Shown: positions 1,856 to 7,366 of the stretch, piece by piece | How positions within the stretch are numbered: the stretch's first letter is position 1 | Layout: each line of letters starts with the position of its first letter | Origin: Minisyncoccia bacterium | GTDB lineage: Bacteria > Patescibacteriota > Minisyncoccia > Phycocordibacterales > UBA9973 | Reading direction: 5' to 3' | Assembly (NCBI GenBank): GCA_038323465.1 | Contig: JBBQGX010000003.1 | Span: 1 to 34,779, forward strand | Length of the DNA: 34,779 nt | Notes under the pieces: model-generated | Told to the model about the DNA's origin: nothing | Databases searched by the model: none | What the model saw: the letters and a program-made list of their open reading frames with translations, nothing else | Translations under genes and position numbers: made by a program

Positions 1856-2278
1856 TTATTTTCTCCCAGTACTTCCAAACCCTCCCTCCCCCCTATCTGA
1901 TTCACTCAAACTATCAGTTTCCTCAATTTCCGCAATAGCTACTGGAAAAATAACAATTTGAGCAACTTTATCTCCCTCTTCTACAGTATAGGGTTCACTG
2001 CCAAGATTTACAAGGTGCGTATTGTATTCACCCCTATACCCAGCATCAAATACGCCCCCCATAGAACTAAGCCCTGCTTTTGAAATACTACTTTTGTCTT
2101 TTACAATAGCAGCATACCCTACTGGGAATTCCATAGCAAAACCATGCCAAAAGAAACGATGATCCCCTGGTGCGAGTGTATAAGTCTCCATAGAATACAC
2201 ATCCATACCAACATCACCAATATGGTGATACTTTGGTAACTTTGCTCCTTCTTTTAATTTTTTAATTTTGATTAACAT
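1856..2278 (-). CDS. dut: dUTP diphosphatase (trimeric dUTPase)
   Basis: 140 aa; GDVGMDV, KSS, GVFDAGYRGE, DKVAQIV and C-terminal RGEGGFGSTG motifs. Confidence 0.96.
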   Translation of the reverse strand: MLIKIKKLKEGAKLPKYHHIGDVGMDVYSMETYTLAPGDHRFFWHGFAMEFPVGYAAIVKDKSSISKAGLSSMGGVFDAGYRGEYNTHLVNLGSEPYTVEEGDKVAQIVIFPVAIAEIEETDSLSESDRGEGGFGSTGRK

Positions 2279-2281
2279 TTA

Positions 2282-2989
2282 TTATTTAACTATTTTTTTA
2301 ACTTTTTCATAAACCATATCGTGAATGGCTTCACGAGAAAGTATTCCACTTTTATCTGAGCAGTCAATTTTAGTCCAGCCTTTCTGTGTTTCGGCAAGCC
2401 AGAGAGCACTTTTGATAGAATTATTTAGATGTTCAGTATCACTCTCAGCGACATCTTTATTCTTCTTTAGATATTCTCTTTTCATCTGACTACTTTCTCT
2501 CTTTTCTAAAAGCTCTAGAACTATCTTAATGGGTAAACTTAAATATACAGTTAAATCAGGGCGAGGAATACCAAAGACTTCATATTCCATCTTGTTGAGC
2601 CACCCTATAAAACTATTACGTTTTTTTGTATTACTTATTTTTCCTCCCTGATGAATCTGATTCGCTGATACGTAACGATTGGCAATCACAACATAACCCT
2701 TCTTAAGCCATCCTTCTAATTCCTTACTAGATTCCCATCTATCTGCAGCATATAAAACAGATGCTATTTTTGGATGAACATGCAAGAAATTATAATATTG
2801 TTCTGAAAGACAATGACCGATAAATTCACCAAAAAAGTTTTTGTAATACTCTGGAAAATCAACAATCTTTACAGTATGACCCTCTTTTCTTAAATGCTTC
2901 ATCAACAAATCCACTTGGGTAGCTTTCCCACTGCCATCTGTTCCATCTATCACTATTAGTTTTCCTTTGTATTTTTTATTTTTTATCAT
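2282..2989 (-). CDS. tmk: Thymidylate kinase family protein
   Basis: P-loop IDGTDGSGKATQ, LYAADR, RYVSAN; start moved to ATG 2989 (MIKNKK), overlapping the NUDIX stop (track start 3019). Confidence 0.9.
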   Translation of the reverse strand: MIKNKKYKGKLIVIDGTDGSGKATQVDLLMKHLRKEGHTVKIVDFPEYYKNFFGEFIGHCLSEQYYNFLHVHPKIASVLYAADRWESSKELEGWLKKGYVVIANRYVSANQIHQGGKISNTKKRNSFIGWLNKMEYEVFGIPRPDLTVYLSLPIKIVLELLEKRESSQMKREYLKKNKDVAESDTEHLNNSIKSALWLAETQKGWTKIDCSDKSGILSREAIHDMVYEKVKKIVK

Positions 2990-3404
2990 AATAATTCTTG
3001 CCTGTTTTATATGAATCAATTGTTATTTTAGTTGGATAAAAAAGAGGAGAAGGAAGTTCTTCGAGAAAATACCAACTCCAATCGCCAATTCTTTCTTTTG
3101 GATCCGTTCTTTCGTTCCCTTCTTCCCAATCTGCTTTAAAAGAAATAAGAATATCGTGTCGATAAGAATATCGATCAATATTTGCGACACTTAAAAATTC
3201 AATATTTTTTATTTTTATTCCTGCTTCTTCTTCTGTTTCTCTTCTAATAGCACTTTTAAAACTTTCCATATAATCTATCCGACCACCAGGAAAAGAATAC
3301 TCTCCTGTGGCATGTTTGCCACTTCTTTTACCAAGAAGGACTTTTCCGTCTTTCCAAATCATCACTCCGACACATGGTTGTATCTCTTTACTTAAATCCG
3401 TCAT
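2976..3404 (-). CDS. NUDIX hydrolase (MutT/NUDT15-like nucleotide sanitiser)
   Basis: 142 aa; Nudix box GGRIDYMESFKSAIRRETEEEAGI; VLLGKR upstream. Confidence 0.9.
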   Translation of the reverse strand: MTDLSKEIQPCVGVMIWKDGKVLLGKRSGKHATGEYSFPGGRIDYMESFKSAIRRETEEEAGIKIKNIEFLSVANIDRYSYRHDILISFKADWEEGNERTDPKERIGDWSWYFLEELPSPLFYPTKITIDSYKTGKNYYDKK

Positions 3405-3741: not shown

Positions 3742-4959
3742 TTATTTTCTTAAAATCTTATCCATCTTTATTGCGAGTTTGACCATATCAGTTTCCTTTT
3801 TACCACGAGTAGTTTCTGCGCAAGTTCCTAGACGGATTCCTGATGGATCCATAGGTCCTCGTGGGTCACCGGGGATAGTATTCATGTTTACGATGATGCC
3901 TGCTTTCTCCAAGCGCTCACTTGCATCTTTCCCAGGGATCCCCTTGCCTTCCATCCATGTATCCATAAGTATAAGATGTGAATCAGTACCACCTGAGATA
4001 ATATGCCAGCCGAGCTTTTGTAATTCTTTTGCTAAAACTTTCGCATTCTTCACAACTTGTTTTGCATACTTTTTAAATGCTGGGGTATCTGCTTCTTTTA
4101 AGGCGACAGCAACAGCCGCAATATTGTTCTCATGTGGACCACCGAAAAGTCCTGGAATAACCATCTTGTCTAATTTTTTATCAAAACCTCTCTCATCCTT
4201 TTTCACAAAAAGAATCGCTTGGCGTGGTCCACGAAGACTCTTGTGAGTCGTCGTCATGACAGAATCAGCATAAGGGAATGGTGATGGATAAGCTCCACCT
4301 GCTACAAGTCCCGCAAAATGTGACATGTCCACATGGAGAAGTGCTCCGCATGCGTCAGCTATTTCTCTGAATTTCTTGAAATCTACAATGCGAGGATATG
4401 CAGTGAATCCAGCTACGATAATATTGGGTTTCTCTTCTATTGCAAATTTCTTTAGTGCATCATAATCTATAACTTCAGTTTTAGGATCGAGTTCAAATTG
4501 TGCAGGCTTCCAAAGCTTCCCCGTCATAGATCCTGGATATCCGTGAGTAAGGTGACCACCTGCTGATAACTTCATACCCATTATTTTTCCACTGACTGGA
4601 ACTAAGGCAGAATACAAAGCAAAGTTTGCAGGAGAGCCTGAGAGAGGTTGGACGTTCACATGCCAAAAATCACCAGATTTTTGGTCCTGAACTTTTTTAG
4701 TGAAGGACTTATCACCACCTTTTAGTTTGAAAAGTTTCAAAGCTCTATCCATACAAAGTTGCTCCACTTTATCTACAACTTGATTTCCACCATAATATCT
4801 TCTTCCTGGATAACCTTCTGCATATTTATTTGTAAGCTTAGAACCAAGTGCACGAAGAACATCGTCAGAAACAATGTTCTCTGATGCTATTAAATTGATG
4901 ACACTCTTCTGTCTCTTCTCCTCTTCTTTAATTAATTTTTCTATTTGTTTGTCTTTCAT
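3742..4959 (-). CDS. glyA: Serine hydroxymethyltransferase
   Basis: LIASEN, NKYAEGYPGRRYYGG, GGHLTHG, PLP lysine TTHKSLRGPR, GGTDSH, SGIRLGT; probable start ATG 4959 (MKDKQ) rather than TTG 4986. Confidence 0.97.
   Translation of the reverse strand: MKDKQIEKLIKEEEKRQKSVINLIASENIVSDDVLRALGSKLTNKYAEGYPGRRYYGGNQVVDKVEQLCMDRALKLFKLKGGDKSFTKKVQDQKSGDFWHVNVQPLSGSPANFALYSALVPVSGKIMGMKLSAGGHLTHGYPGSMTGKLWKPAQFELDPKTEVIDYDALKKFAIEEKPNIIVAGFTAYPRIVDFKKFREIADACGALLHVDMSHFAGLVAGGAYPSPFPYADSVMTTTHKSLRGPRQAILFVKKDERGFDKKLDKMVIPGLFGGPHENNIAAVAVALKEADTPAFKKYAKQVVKNAKVLAKELQKLGWHIISGGTDSHLILMDTWMEGKGIPGKDASERLEKAGIIVNMNTIPGDPRGPMDPSGIRLGTCAETTRGKKETDMVKLAIKMDKILRK
4669..4717. repeat. 42-nt in-frame insertion in glyA: hairpin bracketed by a 7-bp direct repeat
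   Basis: atcacca at 4669-4675 and 4711-4717; between them gtcct-ga-act-ttttt-agt-ga-aggac. Confidence 0.6.
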
Positions 4960-5040
4960 TTGATTTCGCGAAATCATGTCGCGCAATCGTCCGCTAAGCG
5001 CGACGATAGATTAGATTATTAATAGGCCAATTTTACCACA
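4960..5040 (-). promoter_or_regulatory. glyA promoter (extended -10) and structured 5' leader
   Basis: TGgTAAAAT on minus at 5038-5030; leader holds perfect palindrome 4961-4976 and GC-rich stems at 4978-5007. Confidence 0.55.
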
Positions 5041-5082: not shown

Positions 5083-5595
5083 TTATTCAAATTGATGTCG
5101 TATAATGTTACTTGGTTCATCTTTATTAAAGAGTATTTCACTTTTTTCTAAAAGATAAACATTGTTGATACCAACTGATATCATAGTATTCCAGCATGGT
5201 TCACAACACCACCAATGCCCCCAAAGATAAACATCTGCTCCTGTTAGATCATTTCCTTTACTAATAGCATCCTGGATAGCTTTTGCTTCACCGTGATTAT
5301 TTGGACTACATCCATCACAAAGTTCATATCCTACACCAGTAGGCATATTGTGTTCTTTTCTGTAACAACCATGTTTTTCATGATAATCACTTCCATTTGC
5401 GCCAATACCAATAATTTTATTATTTTTTACTATCACACTAGCATTAGGCATAGATTTATCTAAAGAATTTTCTTTAGCAAAATTTTTAGCTGTTTGCATA
5501 AACTCATTATCCTCTGTCACATAAAGAATAGTGCGTCCTTCTGGTAAATAAGGATAAACTACTTTATTACTTTCTGTTTTTGTTTCCTTTTCCAT
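5083..5595 (-). CDS. dCMP deaminase family zinc-dependent deaminase (ComEB/DCD-like)
   Basis: 170 aa; HGE catalytic motif, WWCCEPC (CxxC), GCYR...PTGVGYELC segment typical of dCMP deaminases. Confidence 0.85.
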   Translation of the reverse strand: MEKETKTESNKVVYPYLPEGRTILYVTEDNEFMQTAKNFAKENSLDKSMPNASVIVKNNKIIGIGANGSDYHEKHGCYRKEHNMPTGVGYELCDGCSPNNHGEAKAIQDAISKGNDLTGADVYLWGHWWCCEPCWNTMISVGINNVYLLEKSEILFNKDEPSNIIRHQFE

Positions 5596-5623
5596 AAATT
5601 GATTATAATGTATAATACATTAT
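5596..5623. promoter_or_regulatory. 28-bp divergent double promoter, both leaderless-type
   Basis: TATAAT 5611-5616 (+) 7 nt before thyA ATG; TATAAT 5607-5602 (-) 6 nt before deaminase ATG; 8-bp inverted repeat ataatgta-taa-tacattat. Confidence 0.7.
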
Positions 5624-6472
5624 ATGACAACTTTTGATATAATATACAAAAATTTAATAAAAAAAATAATGGAAGACGGGATAGAAGAATTAAACGAAAG
5701 AACTGGTCATAAAATAAAAATTTTACCAGGACTTACTTTCCAAACAGATATAGGAAAAGATGGTTTTCCTGTTTTAACTTTACGGAAAAATCCAATAAGG
5801 TCCCCTATCGCTGAACAAGTATGGTTTATCACTGGTGATAAAGATACAGAATTTTTAAGAAAATACACAAAAATGTGGGATGAGTTTATTGAGGAAGATG
5901 GAACAATTACTTCTGCTTACGGATATCGATGGCGACATCATTTTAAAAGAGACCAACTAGACCAATTAATAAAACATCTAACAGAAGAACCTCATTCAAG
6001 ACAAGGAGTAGTCATCACTTGGGACCCAAGTGATGATGGTTTGTATGGAAAAGGATTAAAAGCCACTTATAAAAAGAATGCTCCTTGCCCATTTGCGTTT
6101 ACTGTAAATATAATTGGGGGTAGACTTCATTTACATAACATAATCCGTTCAAATGATATGATGCTCGGATGTCCTTTTGATACTTTTGGGTTTAGTCTCC
6201 TTATGTGTACACTCGCTCAAAAACTTGGGGTTAAGCCAGGAATTTATACTCACACAATTTCAAACGCTCATATATACGATACACACTATGAAGGAGCTAT
6301 TGAATTAATAAAAAGAGAAAATGATCATCCAAATATATATCCAATACTACCAAATAATATTTACGATAGAGCAGAGAAAAAGGACGAGACATTGGTTGAT
6401 GAAATATTCCAATCTTTCAAACCATTTTATAACCCAAGTGAACCAATAGAAGGTCTTGATATAATAAAATAA
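5624..6472 (+). CDS. thyA: Thymidylate synthase family enzyme with Asp at the Asn177 position (possible dCMP methylase)
   Basis: 282 aa; ELNERTG, EQVWFITG, AYGYRWR, SRQ, catalytic PC (C155), RSND, NAHIY; D186 aligns with E. coli N177. Fold confident, substrate uncertain. Confidence 0.9.
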   Translation: MTTFDIIYKNLIKKIMEDGIEELNERTGHKIKILPGLTFQTDIGKDGFPVLTLRKNPIRSPIAEQVWFITGDKDTEFLRKYTKMWDEFIEEDGTITSAYGYRWRHHFKRDQLDQLIKHLTEEPHSRQGVVITWDPSDDGLYGKGLKATYKKNAPCPFAFTVNIIGGRLHLHNIIRSNDMMLGCPFDTFGFSLLMCTLAQKLGVKPGIYTHTISNAHIYDTHYEGAIELIKRENDHPNIYPILPNNIYDRAEKKDETLVDEIFQSFKPFYNPSEPIEGLDIIK

Positions 6473-6476
6473 CATT

Positions 6477-7001
6477 ATGATTCTATCTATAATTTCTGCT
6501 ATCGCAAATAATAATGAAATAGGAAGGAAGAATGAGCTTCTGTGGGATTTACCTATAGATATGAAGCATTTTAGAGAGACAACTTCAGGTCATCCTATCA
6601 TAATGGGTCAGCGTACATACGAGTCTCTTGGAACTGATTCTAATGGTTTGCCAGGGAAACCACTCCCAAACAGGAGAAACATAGTTCTTACCCTTGATAA
6701 AGATTTCAAAAGAGAGGGTATTGAAATATATTACTCAATCGAGGATTTAGAAAAAGTGCTAAGTGAAACAATGCAAGAAAATGAAGAGGCTTTTATCATT
6801 GGAGGAGGAATGATATATAAACTCTTTATAGATAAAGCAGACAAACTTTACATCACACATGTCAACGCAGAATTCGGAGATGCTGATACACTCTTCCCTG
6901 TTATAGATAAAGATAGATGGAAAGTAATATCTGAAGATAAACATGAAAAAGACGAAAAAAATATTTATGATTGCAATTTTGTAATTTATGAAAAAATATA
7001 A
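6477..7001 (+). CDS. folA: Dihydrofolate reductase
   Basis: 174 aa; IG.KNELLW.LP.DMKHF, IMGQRTYES, PLPNRRNIVLT, IIGGG, DADTLFP; 4 bp after thyA. Confidence 0.96.
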   Translation: MILSIISAIANNNEIGRKNELLWDLPIDMKHFRETTSGHPIIMGQRTYESLGTDSNGLPGKPLPNRRNIVLTLDKDFKREGIEIYYSIEDLEKVLSETMQENEEAFIIGGGMIYKLFIDKADKLYITHVNAEFGDADTLFPVIDKDRWKVISEDKHEKDEKNIYDCNFVIYEKI

Positions 7002-7038
7002 AAAAATCCCCGCTAATTTCATTAGCGGGGATTTTTTT
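7000..7038. terminator. Bidirectional intrinsic terminator between convergent folA and MazG-like gene
   Basis: Perfect 18-bp inverted repeat aaaaaaatccccgctaat-ttc-attagcggggattttttt. Confidence 0.92.
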
Positions 7039-7366
7039 ATGGATCTATATCTGTTTTTTCTCTTATAAATACATCTTTACCGTCTGGGGATTTTGATTTT
7101 ATATATTTACGATTTTTATTCTTTTCTATTTTTTCAACTAATTCTTTTTCTAAATCATAACCGAGAATTTCACACATTCCAAGTATAAATATTGCAACAT
7201 CAGCAAATTCTTCAGCCACACCATCCTGACTTTTACTGAACTTAGAATAAGCCTCTGACAGCTCTTCATGGGCACGACAAAATTCTACTGCAACATCAGT
7301 AGTATTGAAACCTTTCTCTAGCTTATTTCTCATTACTTCCTTTTGTAATTCTTTAAGATCTATCAT
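7037..7366 (-). CDS. MazG-like all-alpha NTP pyrophosphatase (DCTPP1/RS21-C6-like size)
   Basis: 109 aa; EELSE...EEFADV acidic metal-binding motif, KIEKNKNRKY tail; TATAAT (7378-7373) 6 nt before ATG. Confidence 0.85.
   Translation of the reverse strand: MIDLKELQKEVMRNKLEKGFNTTDVAVEFCRAHEELSEAYSKFSKSQDGVAEEFADVAIFILGMCEILGYDLEKELVEKIEKNKNRKYIKSKSPDGKDVFIREKTDIDP

Follow-up and report, generated by a model that had tools for sequence, protein, structure and literature searches.

Organization of the locus

The DNA analysed here, referred to below as the window, is a stretch of 34,779 nucleotides (contig JBBQGX010000003.1 of assembly GCA_038323465.1) from a Minisyncoccia bacterium of the phylum Patescibacteriota, whose genome is available as 57 contigs totalling 753 kb and is 88% complete. 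At positions 5624 to 6472 the window carries a gene for a homologue of the thymidylate synthase (TS) ThyA in which aspartate replaces the asparagine that reads the uracil base in the canonical enzyme. From the nucleotide sequence alone, an earlier annotation (the original prediction) had proposed that this cellular enzyme acts on deoxycytidine monophosphate (dCMP); the canonical substrate is deoxyuridine monophosphate (dUMP). The gene and its surroundings are arranged as follows.

5624..6472, plus strand: ThyA-family enzyme of the Asp177/Pro147 type, 282 amino acids (aa); predicted dCMP C5-methyltransferase
5083..5595, minus strand: dCMP-deaminase-family gene, divergent from the TS gene (PF00383, E = 1.6e-12); predicted 5-methyl-deoxycytidine (5-methyl-dC) nucleotide deaminase
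5596..5623: divergent control region of 28 bp with promoter-like sites back to back (consensus scan only)
6477..7001, plus strand: dihydrofolate reductase (DHFR) gene folA, starting 4 nt past the TS stop codon, in one transcription unit with TS
6998..7040: terminator-like hairpin (20 pairs, T-run) where folA and the MazG-like gene converge, with a call for the minus strand only
7037..7366, minus strand: MazG-like NTP pyrophosphohydrolase, convergent to folA
3742..4986, minus strand: serine hydroxymethyltransferase (SHMT), for supply of methylenetetrahydrofolate (CH2-THF)
2976..3404, minus strand: NUDIX hydrolase, substrate not assigned
2282..3019, minus strand: thymidylate kinase-like gene (Tmk), with orthologues 63-72% identical in congeners that have an Asn-type TS
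1856..2278, minus strand: trimeric dUTPase, the sole PF00692 match in the genome

A small membrane protein is encoded between the NUDIX and SHMT genes, also on the minus strand. Further out lie argS and genes for a CAAX protease, an S9 peptidase, a cobalamin adenosyltransferase, dihydroorotate dehydrogenase (DHODH), zwf, gnd, pgl, a fumarase-like lyase and P-type ATPases. The presence of argS, the peptidase, DHODH, zwf, gnd, the lyase and the ATPases in the flanks speaks against a prophage or phage origin of the window, which was discarded. Names borne by homologues point to the Paceibacteria/Nomurabacteria part of the Patescibacteria as the position of the organism.

The consensus scan of the control region gave TTGTCA-17-TATAAT on the minus strand and TTTCCA-16-TATAAT on the plus strand. 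In both cases the -10-like TATAAT stops about 7 nt short of the start codon ATG, and a Shine-Dalgarno sequence is absent from positions 5596-5623. The placement of these sites predicts that the TS and deaminase mRNAs are both leaderless. The hairpin beyond folA, being palindromic and flanked by A/T, could serve both directions.

Active site and fold

The product of the gene matches PF00303 with an E value of 1.7e-53. HMMER alignments to solved ThyA structures are gap-free near the diagnostic sites, with 'LGCPFDTFGF' lying over 'LGvPFNiasy' and 'APCPFAF' over 'pPCHclF'. Read directly from the codons, Cys155 (TGC, 6086-6088), Pro156 (CCA, 6089-6091) and Asp186 (GAT, 6179-6181) correspond to positions 146, 147 and 177 of E. 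coli ThyA. These assignments, as well as the gapless alignment to E. coli ThyA, had been part of the original prediction and were reproduced here by HMMER and by MAFFT with the E. coli sequence taken from NC_000913. At 16 signature positions (21, 58, 80, 82, 83, 94, 126, 127, 146, 147, 166, 169, 176, 177, 207 and 209 in E. coli ThyA numbering) the window protein reads REWEFYRQCPRDFDHY and E. coli ThyA REWEWYRRCHRDFNHY. The catalytic set Cys146, Arg166, Asp169, Glu58 and Tyr94 is present, whereas the canonical uracil-reading Asn177 and the water-network residue His147 are replaced by Asp186 and Pro156. Ser176 and Arg126 are the deoxy-type ribose determinants; under the rule derived from the MilA structure, Ser167 and Arg126' denote deoxy-specific enzymes, and Ala and Lys denote CMP enzymes (PMC5175136).

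Asp186 is kept in all 118 readable motifs among the 120 closest database relatives (67-100% identity), and Asp at 177 is invariant also in alignments of remoter relatives. Thus, the residue is neither a sequence error nor a one-off but a trait of the family. An AlphaFold2 model of the protein (mean predicted local distance difference test score, pLDDT, 91; predicted TM-score, pTM, 0.91) finds full-length TS as its top PDB matches, with TM-scores of 0.81/0.86 to E. coli TS and of 0.81-0.87 over canonical ThyA. The placement of Asp186 at the Asn177 site comes from the sequence alignments, the model having been superposed as a whole. With regard to automatic annotation, the protein scores marginally above the cut-off of TIGR03284 (115.1 versus 108.35), so that pipelines label the gene thymidylate synthase. 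Seven of the eight matching NCBIfam thymidylate-synthase models remain well below their cut-offs, including NF002497 (146.6 versus 327, the best) and NF002495 (136.5 versus 327).

Phylogenetic position and phage relatives

When 1.84 billion cluster representatives were searched, about 120 of the best 150 matches were found to carry Asp177, 95 of them together with Pro147; His/Asn types begin only at E values of about 1e-36 and weaker. The deposited phages that match best belong to the Xp12 group (Xp12, Mallos, Elanor) or are PaMx74/PaMx28 and their relatives. The Xp12 TS is 36% identical to the window protein over the full length (E = 6e-62).

A maximum-likelihood tree was built from 179 TS-family sequences, including 21 loci of the Asp type from Patescibacteria (Candidate Phyla Radiation, CPR) and 26 Asn-type TS from the same phylum. 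The window protein and all 21 sampled CPR loci fall in a subclade of 40 tips. Xp12 and PaMx74 belong to its sister subclade (91 tips), as does T4 gp42, which sits on a long branch. The two subclades form a clade of 131 tips, every member of which has Asp177; support values (Shimodaira-Hasegawa-like approximate likelihood-ratio test, SH-aLRT) lie at 81-95 for the subclades, compared with 65 for the node that joins them. All 26 Asn177 Patescibacteria enzymes cluster with E. coli ThyA, and just three changes of state at position 177 are required on the tree. A tree of this kind, scored at positions 147 and 177, had been proposed along with the original prediction. Membership in the all-Asp clade implies that the window gene is no mutated canonical ThyA but belongs to an old, cytosine-type lineage. 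Three Asp177-clade cluster representatives (P0137, P0196 and P0153) are fusions, the kinds being dCMP deaminase::TS(Asp177) of 433 aa, PRA-PH (MazG-like)::TS(Asp177) of 424 aa and HNH endonuclease::TS(Asp177) of 432 aa.

Published work on viral DNA gives these residues a functional context. Positions 177 and 147 rank as the two most discriminating between the TS of cytosine-modified and unmodified viral contigs (MetaGPA, PMC8670742), and classical work, as cited in that paper, has the Asn177Asp change switching TS to dCMP. In E. coli, production of 5-methyl-deoxycytidine (5mdC) was shown for the TS homologue of Xp12 and for five out of seven Asp177 homologues from metaviromes (bioRxiv 10.1101/2024.12.05.627091). 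The same study found dCMP-deaminase genes near TS in 70% of modified versus 6.1% of unmodified contigs and reported that such TS-adjacent deaminases prefer 5-methylcytosine (5mC). The sole phage deaminase studied in vitro there, mSCD-B5, acts on the triphosphate 5mdCTP and not on the monophosphate 5mdCMP. The authors of the study proposed that these deaminases turn 5-methyl-dC nucleotides into thymidine nucleotides, so that a normal TS is bypassed (10.1101/2024.12.05.627091).

The only TS-family gene of its carriers

Gene content was compared in a class sample of 301 genomes, the source genome (G000) included, and in 40 further carrier genomes (G301-G340). Relatives of the window locus, sought from an alignment of eight close sequences, were found in 263 GTDB species, and 80 loci were analysed. 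A search for another thyA or thyX in the source genome, suggested along with the original prediction, yielded a single PF00303 match, and ThyX was not found in this 88% complete assembly. Each of the 40 other carrier genomes contains exactly one TS-family gene. Only one of them also has ThyX, on a small separate contig (C99:809-1396) of G335; this bin (RFQR01000008.1) is unusually large at 1.6 Mb, and bin contamination is a possible source. One carrier is a closed chromosome of 931 kb (OZ246400.1), which has one TS-family gene and is without ThyX. In the class sample, ThyX occurs in 137 genomes and TS-family genes in 108, both being found together in only five. As the sole TS-family gene of genomes nearly devoid of ThyX, the Asp-type gene occupies the thymidylate-synthase niche.

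The distribution of the type, about which the original prediction made no claim, is wide but patchy in Patescibacteria. Close relatives of the Asp-type TS are present in only three of the 301 class genomes (G000, G093 and G003), and all 31 other TS genes that were retrieved and had a readable motif are His147/Asn177. These counts, the canonical ThyA of species of the same genus and the 137 genomes with ThyX refute a lineage-wide Asp type. A third kind of TS-family gene, of about 480-560 aa, was met at loci L122-L132 (genomes G044, G262, G200, G045, G268, G073, G196, G112, G005 and G193). Where its motifs are readable (G044, G262, G200 and G268) they are 'RSHD.FGGWPLN' / 'RSHDMTQGWPEN', with 'PC[IL]' instead of 'PCH'; in the other six genomes the motif search gave no match. 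Proteins of this kind match the query only over residues ~95-230. Genomes with this third kind are mostly without DHFR. As to record titles, three loci (L077-L079: CAZVIA010000007.1, OZ246400.1 and CAZVGV010000017.1) are titled Gammaproteobacteria or Saccharibacteria, and many 'uncultured Candidatus Saccharibacteria' records are in the same case. The TS loci group with Paceibacteria/Nomurabacteria-type loci, and the taxonomic labels of these metagenome-assembled genomes look unreliable.

Exchange with canonical ThyA in sister species

Canonical ThyA of about 320 aa with His147 and Asn177 is present in two genomes of the same genus (G255 and G273) and in two of the same family (G121 and G214). 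In G255, G273 and a genome of the same order (G092), the gene order ArgRS-dUTPase-Tmk-(NUDIX)-SHMT-[TS]-DHFR is the one seen in the window, with ThyA in the TS place. The flanking products of G255 are 83% (SHMT), 70% (DHFR), 72% (Tmk) and 71% (ArgRS) identical to those of the window; in G273 they are more diverged (49%, 49%, 63% and 65%, respectively). The TS in that slot is only 28-29% identical to the window TS in both. In the same-family loci of G121 and G214, just the proximity of TS and DHFR is conserved. None of these five genomes has a deaminase gene at the TS locus, and the G255 and G273 slots leave no room for one. Nor was a homologue of the window deaminase found at E <= 1e-3 in the G255, G273, G121 and G214 genomes, all rated 100% complete.

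Judged from these gene orders, a deaminase paired with Asp-type TS and an Asn-type TS on its own can replace one another. This is what a pathway that methylates and then deaminates predicts. An ordinary dUMP enzyme would not predict the swap, since dUTPase-derived dUMP suffices for ThyA in the sister species.

The linked deaminase

The deaminase gene adjoins the Asp-type TS in 77 of the 80 loci. Two of the three exceptions end at a contig edge; in the third, the closed chromosome OZ246400.1, the deaminase gene lies 10.5 kb away. The class sample has 100 other genomes that are TS-only, and 12 of them have a deaminase homologue. The two genes are divergent in most loci and co-directional in others, where the deaminase gene lies 1-5 kb downstream. 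The linkage has therefore outlasted rearrangements.

The protein defines a subfamily with an HGE...CCEPC catalytic zinc site in place of HAE...PCxxC, a second Cys/His cluster that is likewise invariant, and the motif LYLWGHWWCC. The canonical deaminases in the vicinity of Asn-type TS fall outside its clade. Its nearest solved relative by sequence is a generic dCMP deaminase (2HVV, E = 5e-4). A PDB search with the deaminase model returned the dCMP deaminases 4P9E, 1VQ2 and 7FH4 at modest TM-scores (0.47-0.63), generic neighbours that do not tell mono- from triphosphate substrates. Within the clade, TS-linked deaminases form two deep subclades, ~40-47% and 55-66% identical to that of the window, which are independent of TS similarity: L004 and L007 both have a TS at 90-91% identity, with deaminases at 43% versus 66%. 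Such a pattern points to an exchange of partners or to very unequal rates.

In the Uhrbacteria-like and other lineages (L068, L074, L076, L077, L090, and OZ246400.1 at 812605) the TS-linked deaminase is longer, 290-370 aa, with C-terminal DNPH1/Rcl-like Nuc_deoxyrib_tr matches that are weak (E values of 4.6e-6 to 3.6e-3, below the Pfam cut-off). The TS-linked deaminase is the only gene of the cytidine deaminase (CDA) fold (PF00383) found in the source genome, where a separate TadA-like tRNA adenosine deaminase did not turn up (88% complete); many of the genomes G301-G340 also show a single one. A second, canonical CDA-like gene (~130 aa) follows just past DHFR/MazG in several Asp-type loci (G324:C16:53906-54238, G307:C5:73024-73359, and loci in G320, G340, G321, G308, G314 and G316) and may encode a (deoxy)cytidine deaminase; this window has none.

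Coupling to dihydrofolate reductase

DHFR abuts the Asp-type TS in 68 of the 80 loci. In the class sample it is encoded by 70 of the 108 genomes with a TS-family gene, compared with 6 of the 132 that have ThyX only and 1 of the 61 that have neither. All three Asp-type genomes of the sample have it. These counts indicate that DHFR is kept where a dihydrofolate (DHF)-producing TS exists. That DHFR tracks ThyA-type genes and not ThyX argues for reductive methylation over hydroxymethylation, and supports a window enzyme that would yield DHF. The coupling to folA had led to the same preference in the original prediction, and the argument holds at the scale of the class.

A proposed route to thymidine nucleotides

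Altogether, these data make it probable that dCMP is methylated to 5-methyl-dCMP and then deaminated to a thymidine nucleotide as part of cellular housekeeping. An Xp12-type enzyme as sole TS, with a deaminase as its constant companion, points to a cell that probably methylates cytosine first and deaminates afterwards. The residues, the fold, the clade, the status as sole TS, the swap at one syntenic slot and the linkage to deaminase and DHFR are observations, from which we infer the substrate, the product, the order of the steps and the phosphorylation level. Cys155 would attack C6 of dCMP while Asp186 would read N3 and the N4-amino group of the cytosine. Carbon and hydride would come from CH2-THF supplied by the neighbouring SHMT, and the resulting DHF would be recycled by the co-transcribed DHFR. 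The product of the divergently transcribed gene would then deaminate the 5-methyl-dC nucleotide, and a thymidine nucleotide would result. The most economical version has 5-methyl-dCMP converted to deoxythymidine monophosphate (dTMP), which the Tmk of the cluster would phosphorylate; alternatively, deamination might take place at the triphosphate level as with phage mSCD-B5. Hints of deamination at the monophosphate level come from the orthology of Tmk in Asn-type congeners and from the DNPH1/Nuc_deoxyrib_tr-like fusions, whose Pfam scores are weak. The MazG-like product is a candidate for supplying dCMP from dCTP or for sanitising 5-methyl-dCTP; a MazG-like gene also stands beside the Asn-type ThyA of a congener (L085), so that its presence is no hallmark of the Asp type. 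Jointly, deaminase and Asp-type TS would do what ThyA does alone in the sister species. The original proposal of a cellular enzyme acting on dCMP is thus backed by the residue signature, the clade, the deoxy determinants and the coupling to DHFR.

Several points weigh against this reading. The support for the cellular members comes from sequence and genome comparisons. It is hard to see what would become of the dUMP made by the dUTPase of the cluster. The association of deaminase and Asp-type TS is partly inherited linkage, so that the co-occurrence counts are inflated by common ancestry and do not represent independent events. A remote CDA-fold gene in the Asn-type congeners could sit below the search threshold. 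BLASTP found no similarity between the window deaminase and that of Xp12; orthology of the two was therefore dropped, and the partner is considered analogous to the Xp12 one. The weightiest point is that four close relatives of the deaminase (45-59% identity) occur in ThyX genomes without a TS-family gene (G110, G048, G250 and G011). They form two separate pairs nested inside the deaminase clade, and the gene neighbourhoods of the two that were examined are unrelated. Their occurrence rules out a deaminase exclusive to Asp-type TS and implies that deaminases of this clade presumably can make dUMP from dCMP. The window deaminase is more aptly described as a promiscuous or adaptable enzyme than as one dedicated to 5-methyl-dC.

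The last point bears on the foremost competing explanation, in which the enzyme, despite Asp186, is an ordinary TS methylating dUMP, or a dual dUMP/dCMP enzyme, and the deaminase supplies dUMP from dCMP. We consider this unlikely, though by no means negligible. It would account for a gene set that looks like a textbook deoxythymidine triphosphate (dTTP) cluster (dUTPase, Tmk, SHMT, deaminase, TS and DHFR), for the presence of the gene in the slot of canonical ThyA, for the TIGR03284 score above cut-off and for deaminase relatives in ThyX genomes, where the product must be dUMP. However, all characterised natural Asp177 members (T4 gp42, MilA, Xp12 and the five metavirome enzymes) act on cytosine nucleotides, and Asn-to-Asp mutants, in the classical work as cited in PMC8670742, switch to dCMP. 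The gene belongs to an old all-Asp clade and is no recent ThyA variant, and seven of the eight matching NCBIfam models score it far below their cut-offs. Moreover, dUTPase-derived dUMP would suffice for an ordinary TS and the deaminase should often have been lost; yet every carrier has one, as against 12 of the 100 other TS-only genomes.

Two further alternatives retain cytosine as the substrate. The cell might resemble Xp12, with 5-methyl-dCTP used by the replicative polymerase, chromosomal 5mC made before replication and thymidine nucleotides arising from deamination of 5-methyl-dCTP. The gene set equals that of the Xp12 and PaMx74 modules, the one phage deaminase tested in vitro takes 5mdCTP and not 5mdCMP, MazG-like and NUDIX pyrophosphatases are present at the locus, and the genome has a weak match to a Cmk-like kinase, which is not decisive. 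We nevertheless hold this to be improbable: the module brought no special dNMP kinase with it, Asn-type sister species likewise have the Tmk and NUDIX genes (one congener also the MazG-like gene), and Asn/Asp swaps within a genus would mean repeated changes in the DNA chemistry of whole genomes. The GC contents of Asp-type (median 38%) and Asn-type (median 42.5%) loci overlap broadly and do not discriminate. Least credible is a dCMP hydroxymethylase like T4 gp42, forming 5-hydroxymethyl-dCMP without oxidising folate. gp42 shares Asp177 and falls in the same large Asp clade, but a DHFR gene that is translationally adjacent to this type of gene and follows it across genomes does not fit such an activity. 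Nor do the residues at positions 21, 82, 83, 127, 147 and 176, which are unlike those of gp42 (and Xp12-like at 21, 83 and 147), the full-length TS-like fold with TS as best structural matches, or the fact that the window gene is the only possible thymidylate source of the genome.

Significance

In the textbook account, every cell makes thymidylate by methylating dUMP, with ThyA or ThyX as the enzyme. If the proposed route is correct, ultra-small bacteria of several hundred species arrive at thymidine nucleotides in the reverse order, methylating dCMP and then deaminating the product. To our knowledge, this chemistry has been documented only in phages that replace cytosine with 5mC. The literature searched for the present work contained no description of such an enzyme as a cellular housekeeping gene. 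Whether the variant had been described before, a point on which the original prediction took no position, can thus be answered in two parts: the enzyme class is known from phages, and its role as sole housekeeping thymidylate route of cells would be new with respect to the literature searched.

Should the proposal hold, the label "thymidylate synthase" would be a mis-annotation in hundreds of genomes, and ThyA on the one hand and deaminase with Asp-type TS on the other would constitute a natural, repeatedly swapped pair of equivalents for the study of pathway replacement. New dCMP methylases, and possibly deaminases acting on 5mC, would become available to methylation-sequencing technology. 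The occurrence in a cellular genome of 5mC derived from the nucleotide pool would also become a testable possibility. There is an outside chance that part or all of the 5-methyl-dCMP pool reaches the triphosphate level and the replisome, giving 5mC in all sequence contexts in a free-living cell; the MazG-like, NUDIX and deaminase proteins would then set the 5mC:C:T ratio. We know of pre-replicative 5mC in all contexts only from phages such as Xp12.

Comparison with known systems

The dCMP methylases of Xp12 and PaMx74 are the closest known counterparts of the window protein, with which they share Pro147, Asp177, Phe83 and membership in the all-Asp clade; they differ from it at position 127, where the window protein has Gln in place of Arg. 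The likeness extends to the genes around them. The Xp12 module comprises HAD, TS, dCMP deaminase and DHFR genes, and that of PaMx74 pyrophosphohydrolase, thyA, cd and frd; the set of functions (Asp-type TS, deaminase, DHFR and MazG-type pyrophosphatase/pyrophosphohydrolase) is that of the window locus. Unlike the phage genes, the window gene is part of a cellular core chromosome, lying among argS, SHMT, peptidase and pentose-phosphate genes. It encodes the only TS of the cell and belongs to the sister subclade, outside that of the phages. Moreover, Xp12 replaces the cytosine of its DNA, which is improbable for the window organism.

With canonical ThyA the window protein shares the fold, residues Cys146, Arg166, Asp169, Glu58, Tyr94, His207 and Tyr209, the coupling to DHFR and the chromosomal slot, and the net physiological role of the two systems is presumably the same. 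The differences are Asn177 to Asp, His147 to Pro, Trp83 to Phe and Arg127 to Gln, an identity of 26-29%, a separate clade and the need for a linked deaminase. Engineered enzymes come closer at the base-reading position: E. coli TS N177D and L. casei TS N229D have the same Asp, and the L. casei H199A/N229D double mutant, an engineered dCMP methylase, is altered at the same two positions, 177 becoming Asp and 147 ceasing to be His. These are point variants of ThyA, whereas the window protein represents a natural, ancient lineage with many further substitutions. The hydroxymethylases T4 gp42 and MilA/BcmA have in common with it Asp at the base-reading position and the equivalents of the catalytic Cys, His216 and Tyr218. 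T4 gp42 departs from the window protein at positions 21, 82, 83, 127, 147 and 176, is shorter, sits on a very long branch and has no link to DHF recycling. The CMP hydroxymethylases MilA/BcmA have Ala176 and Lys133', where the window protein has the deoxy-type Ser176 and Arg126.

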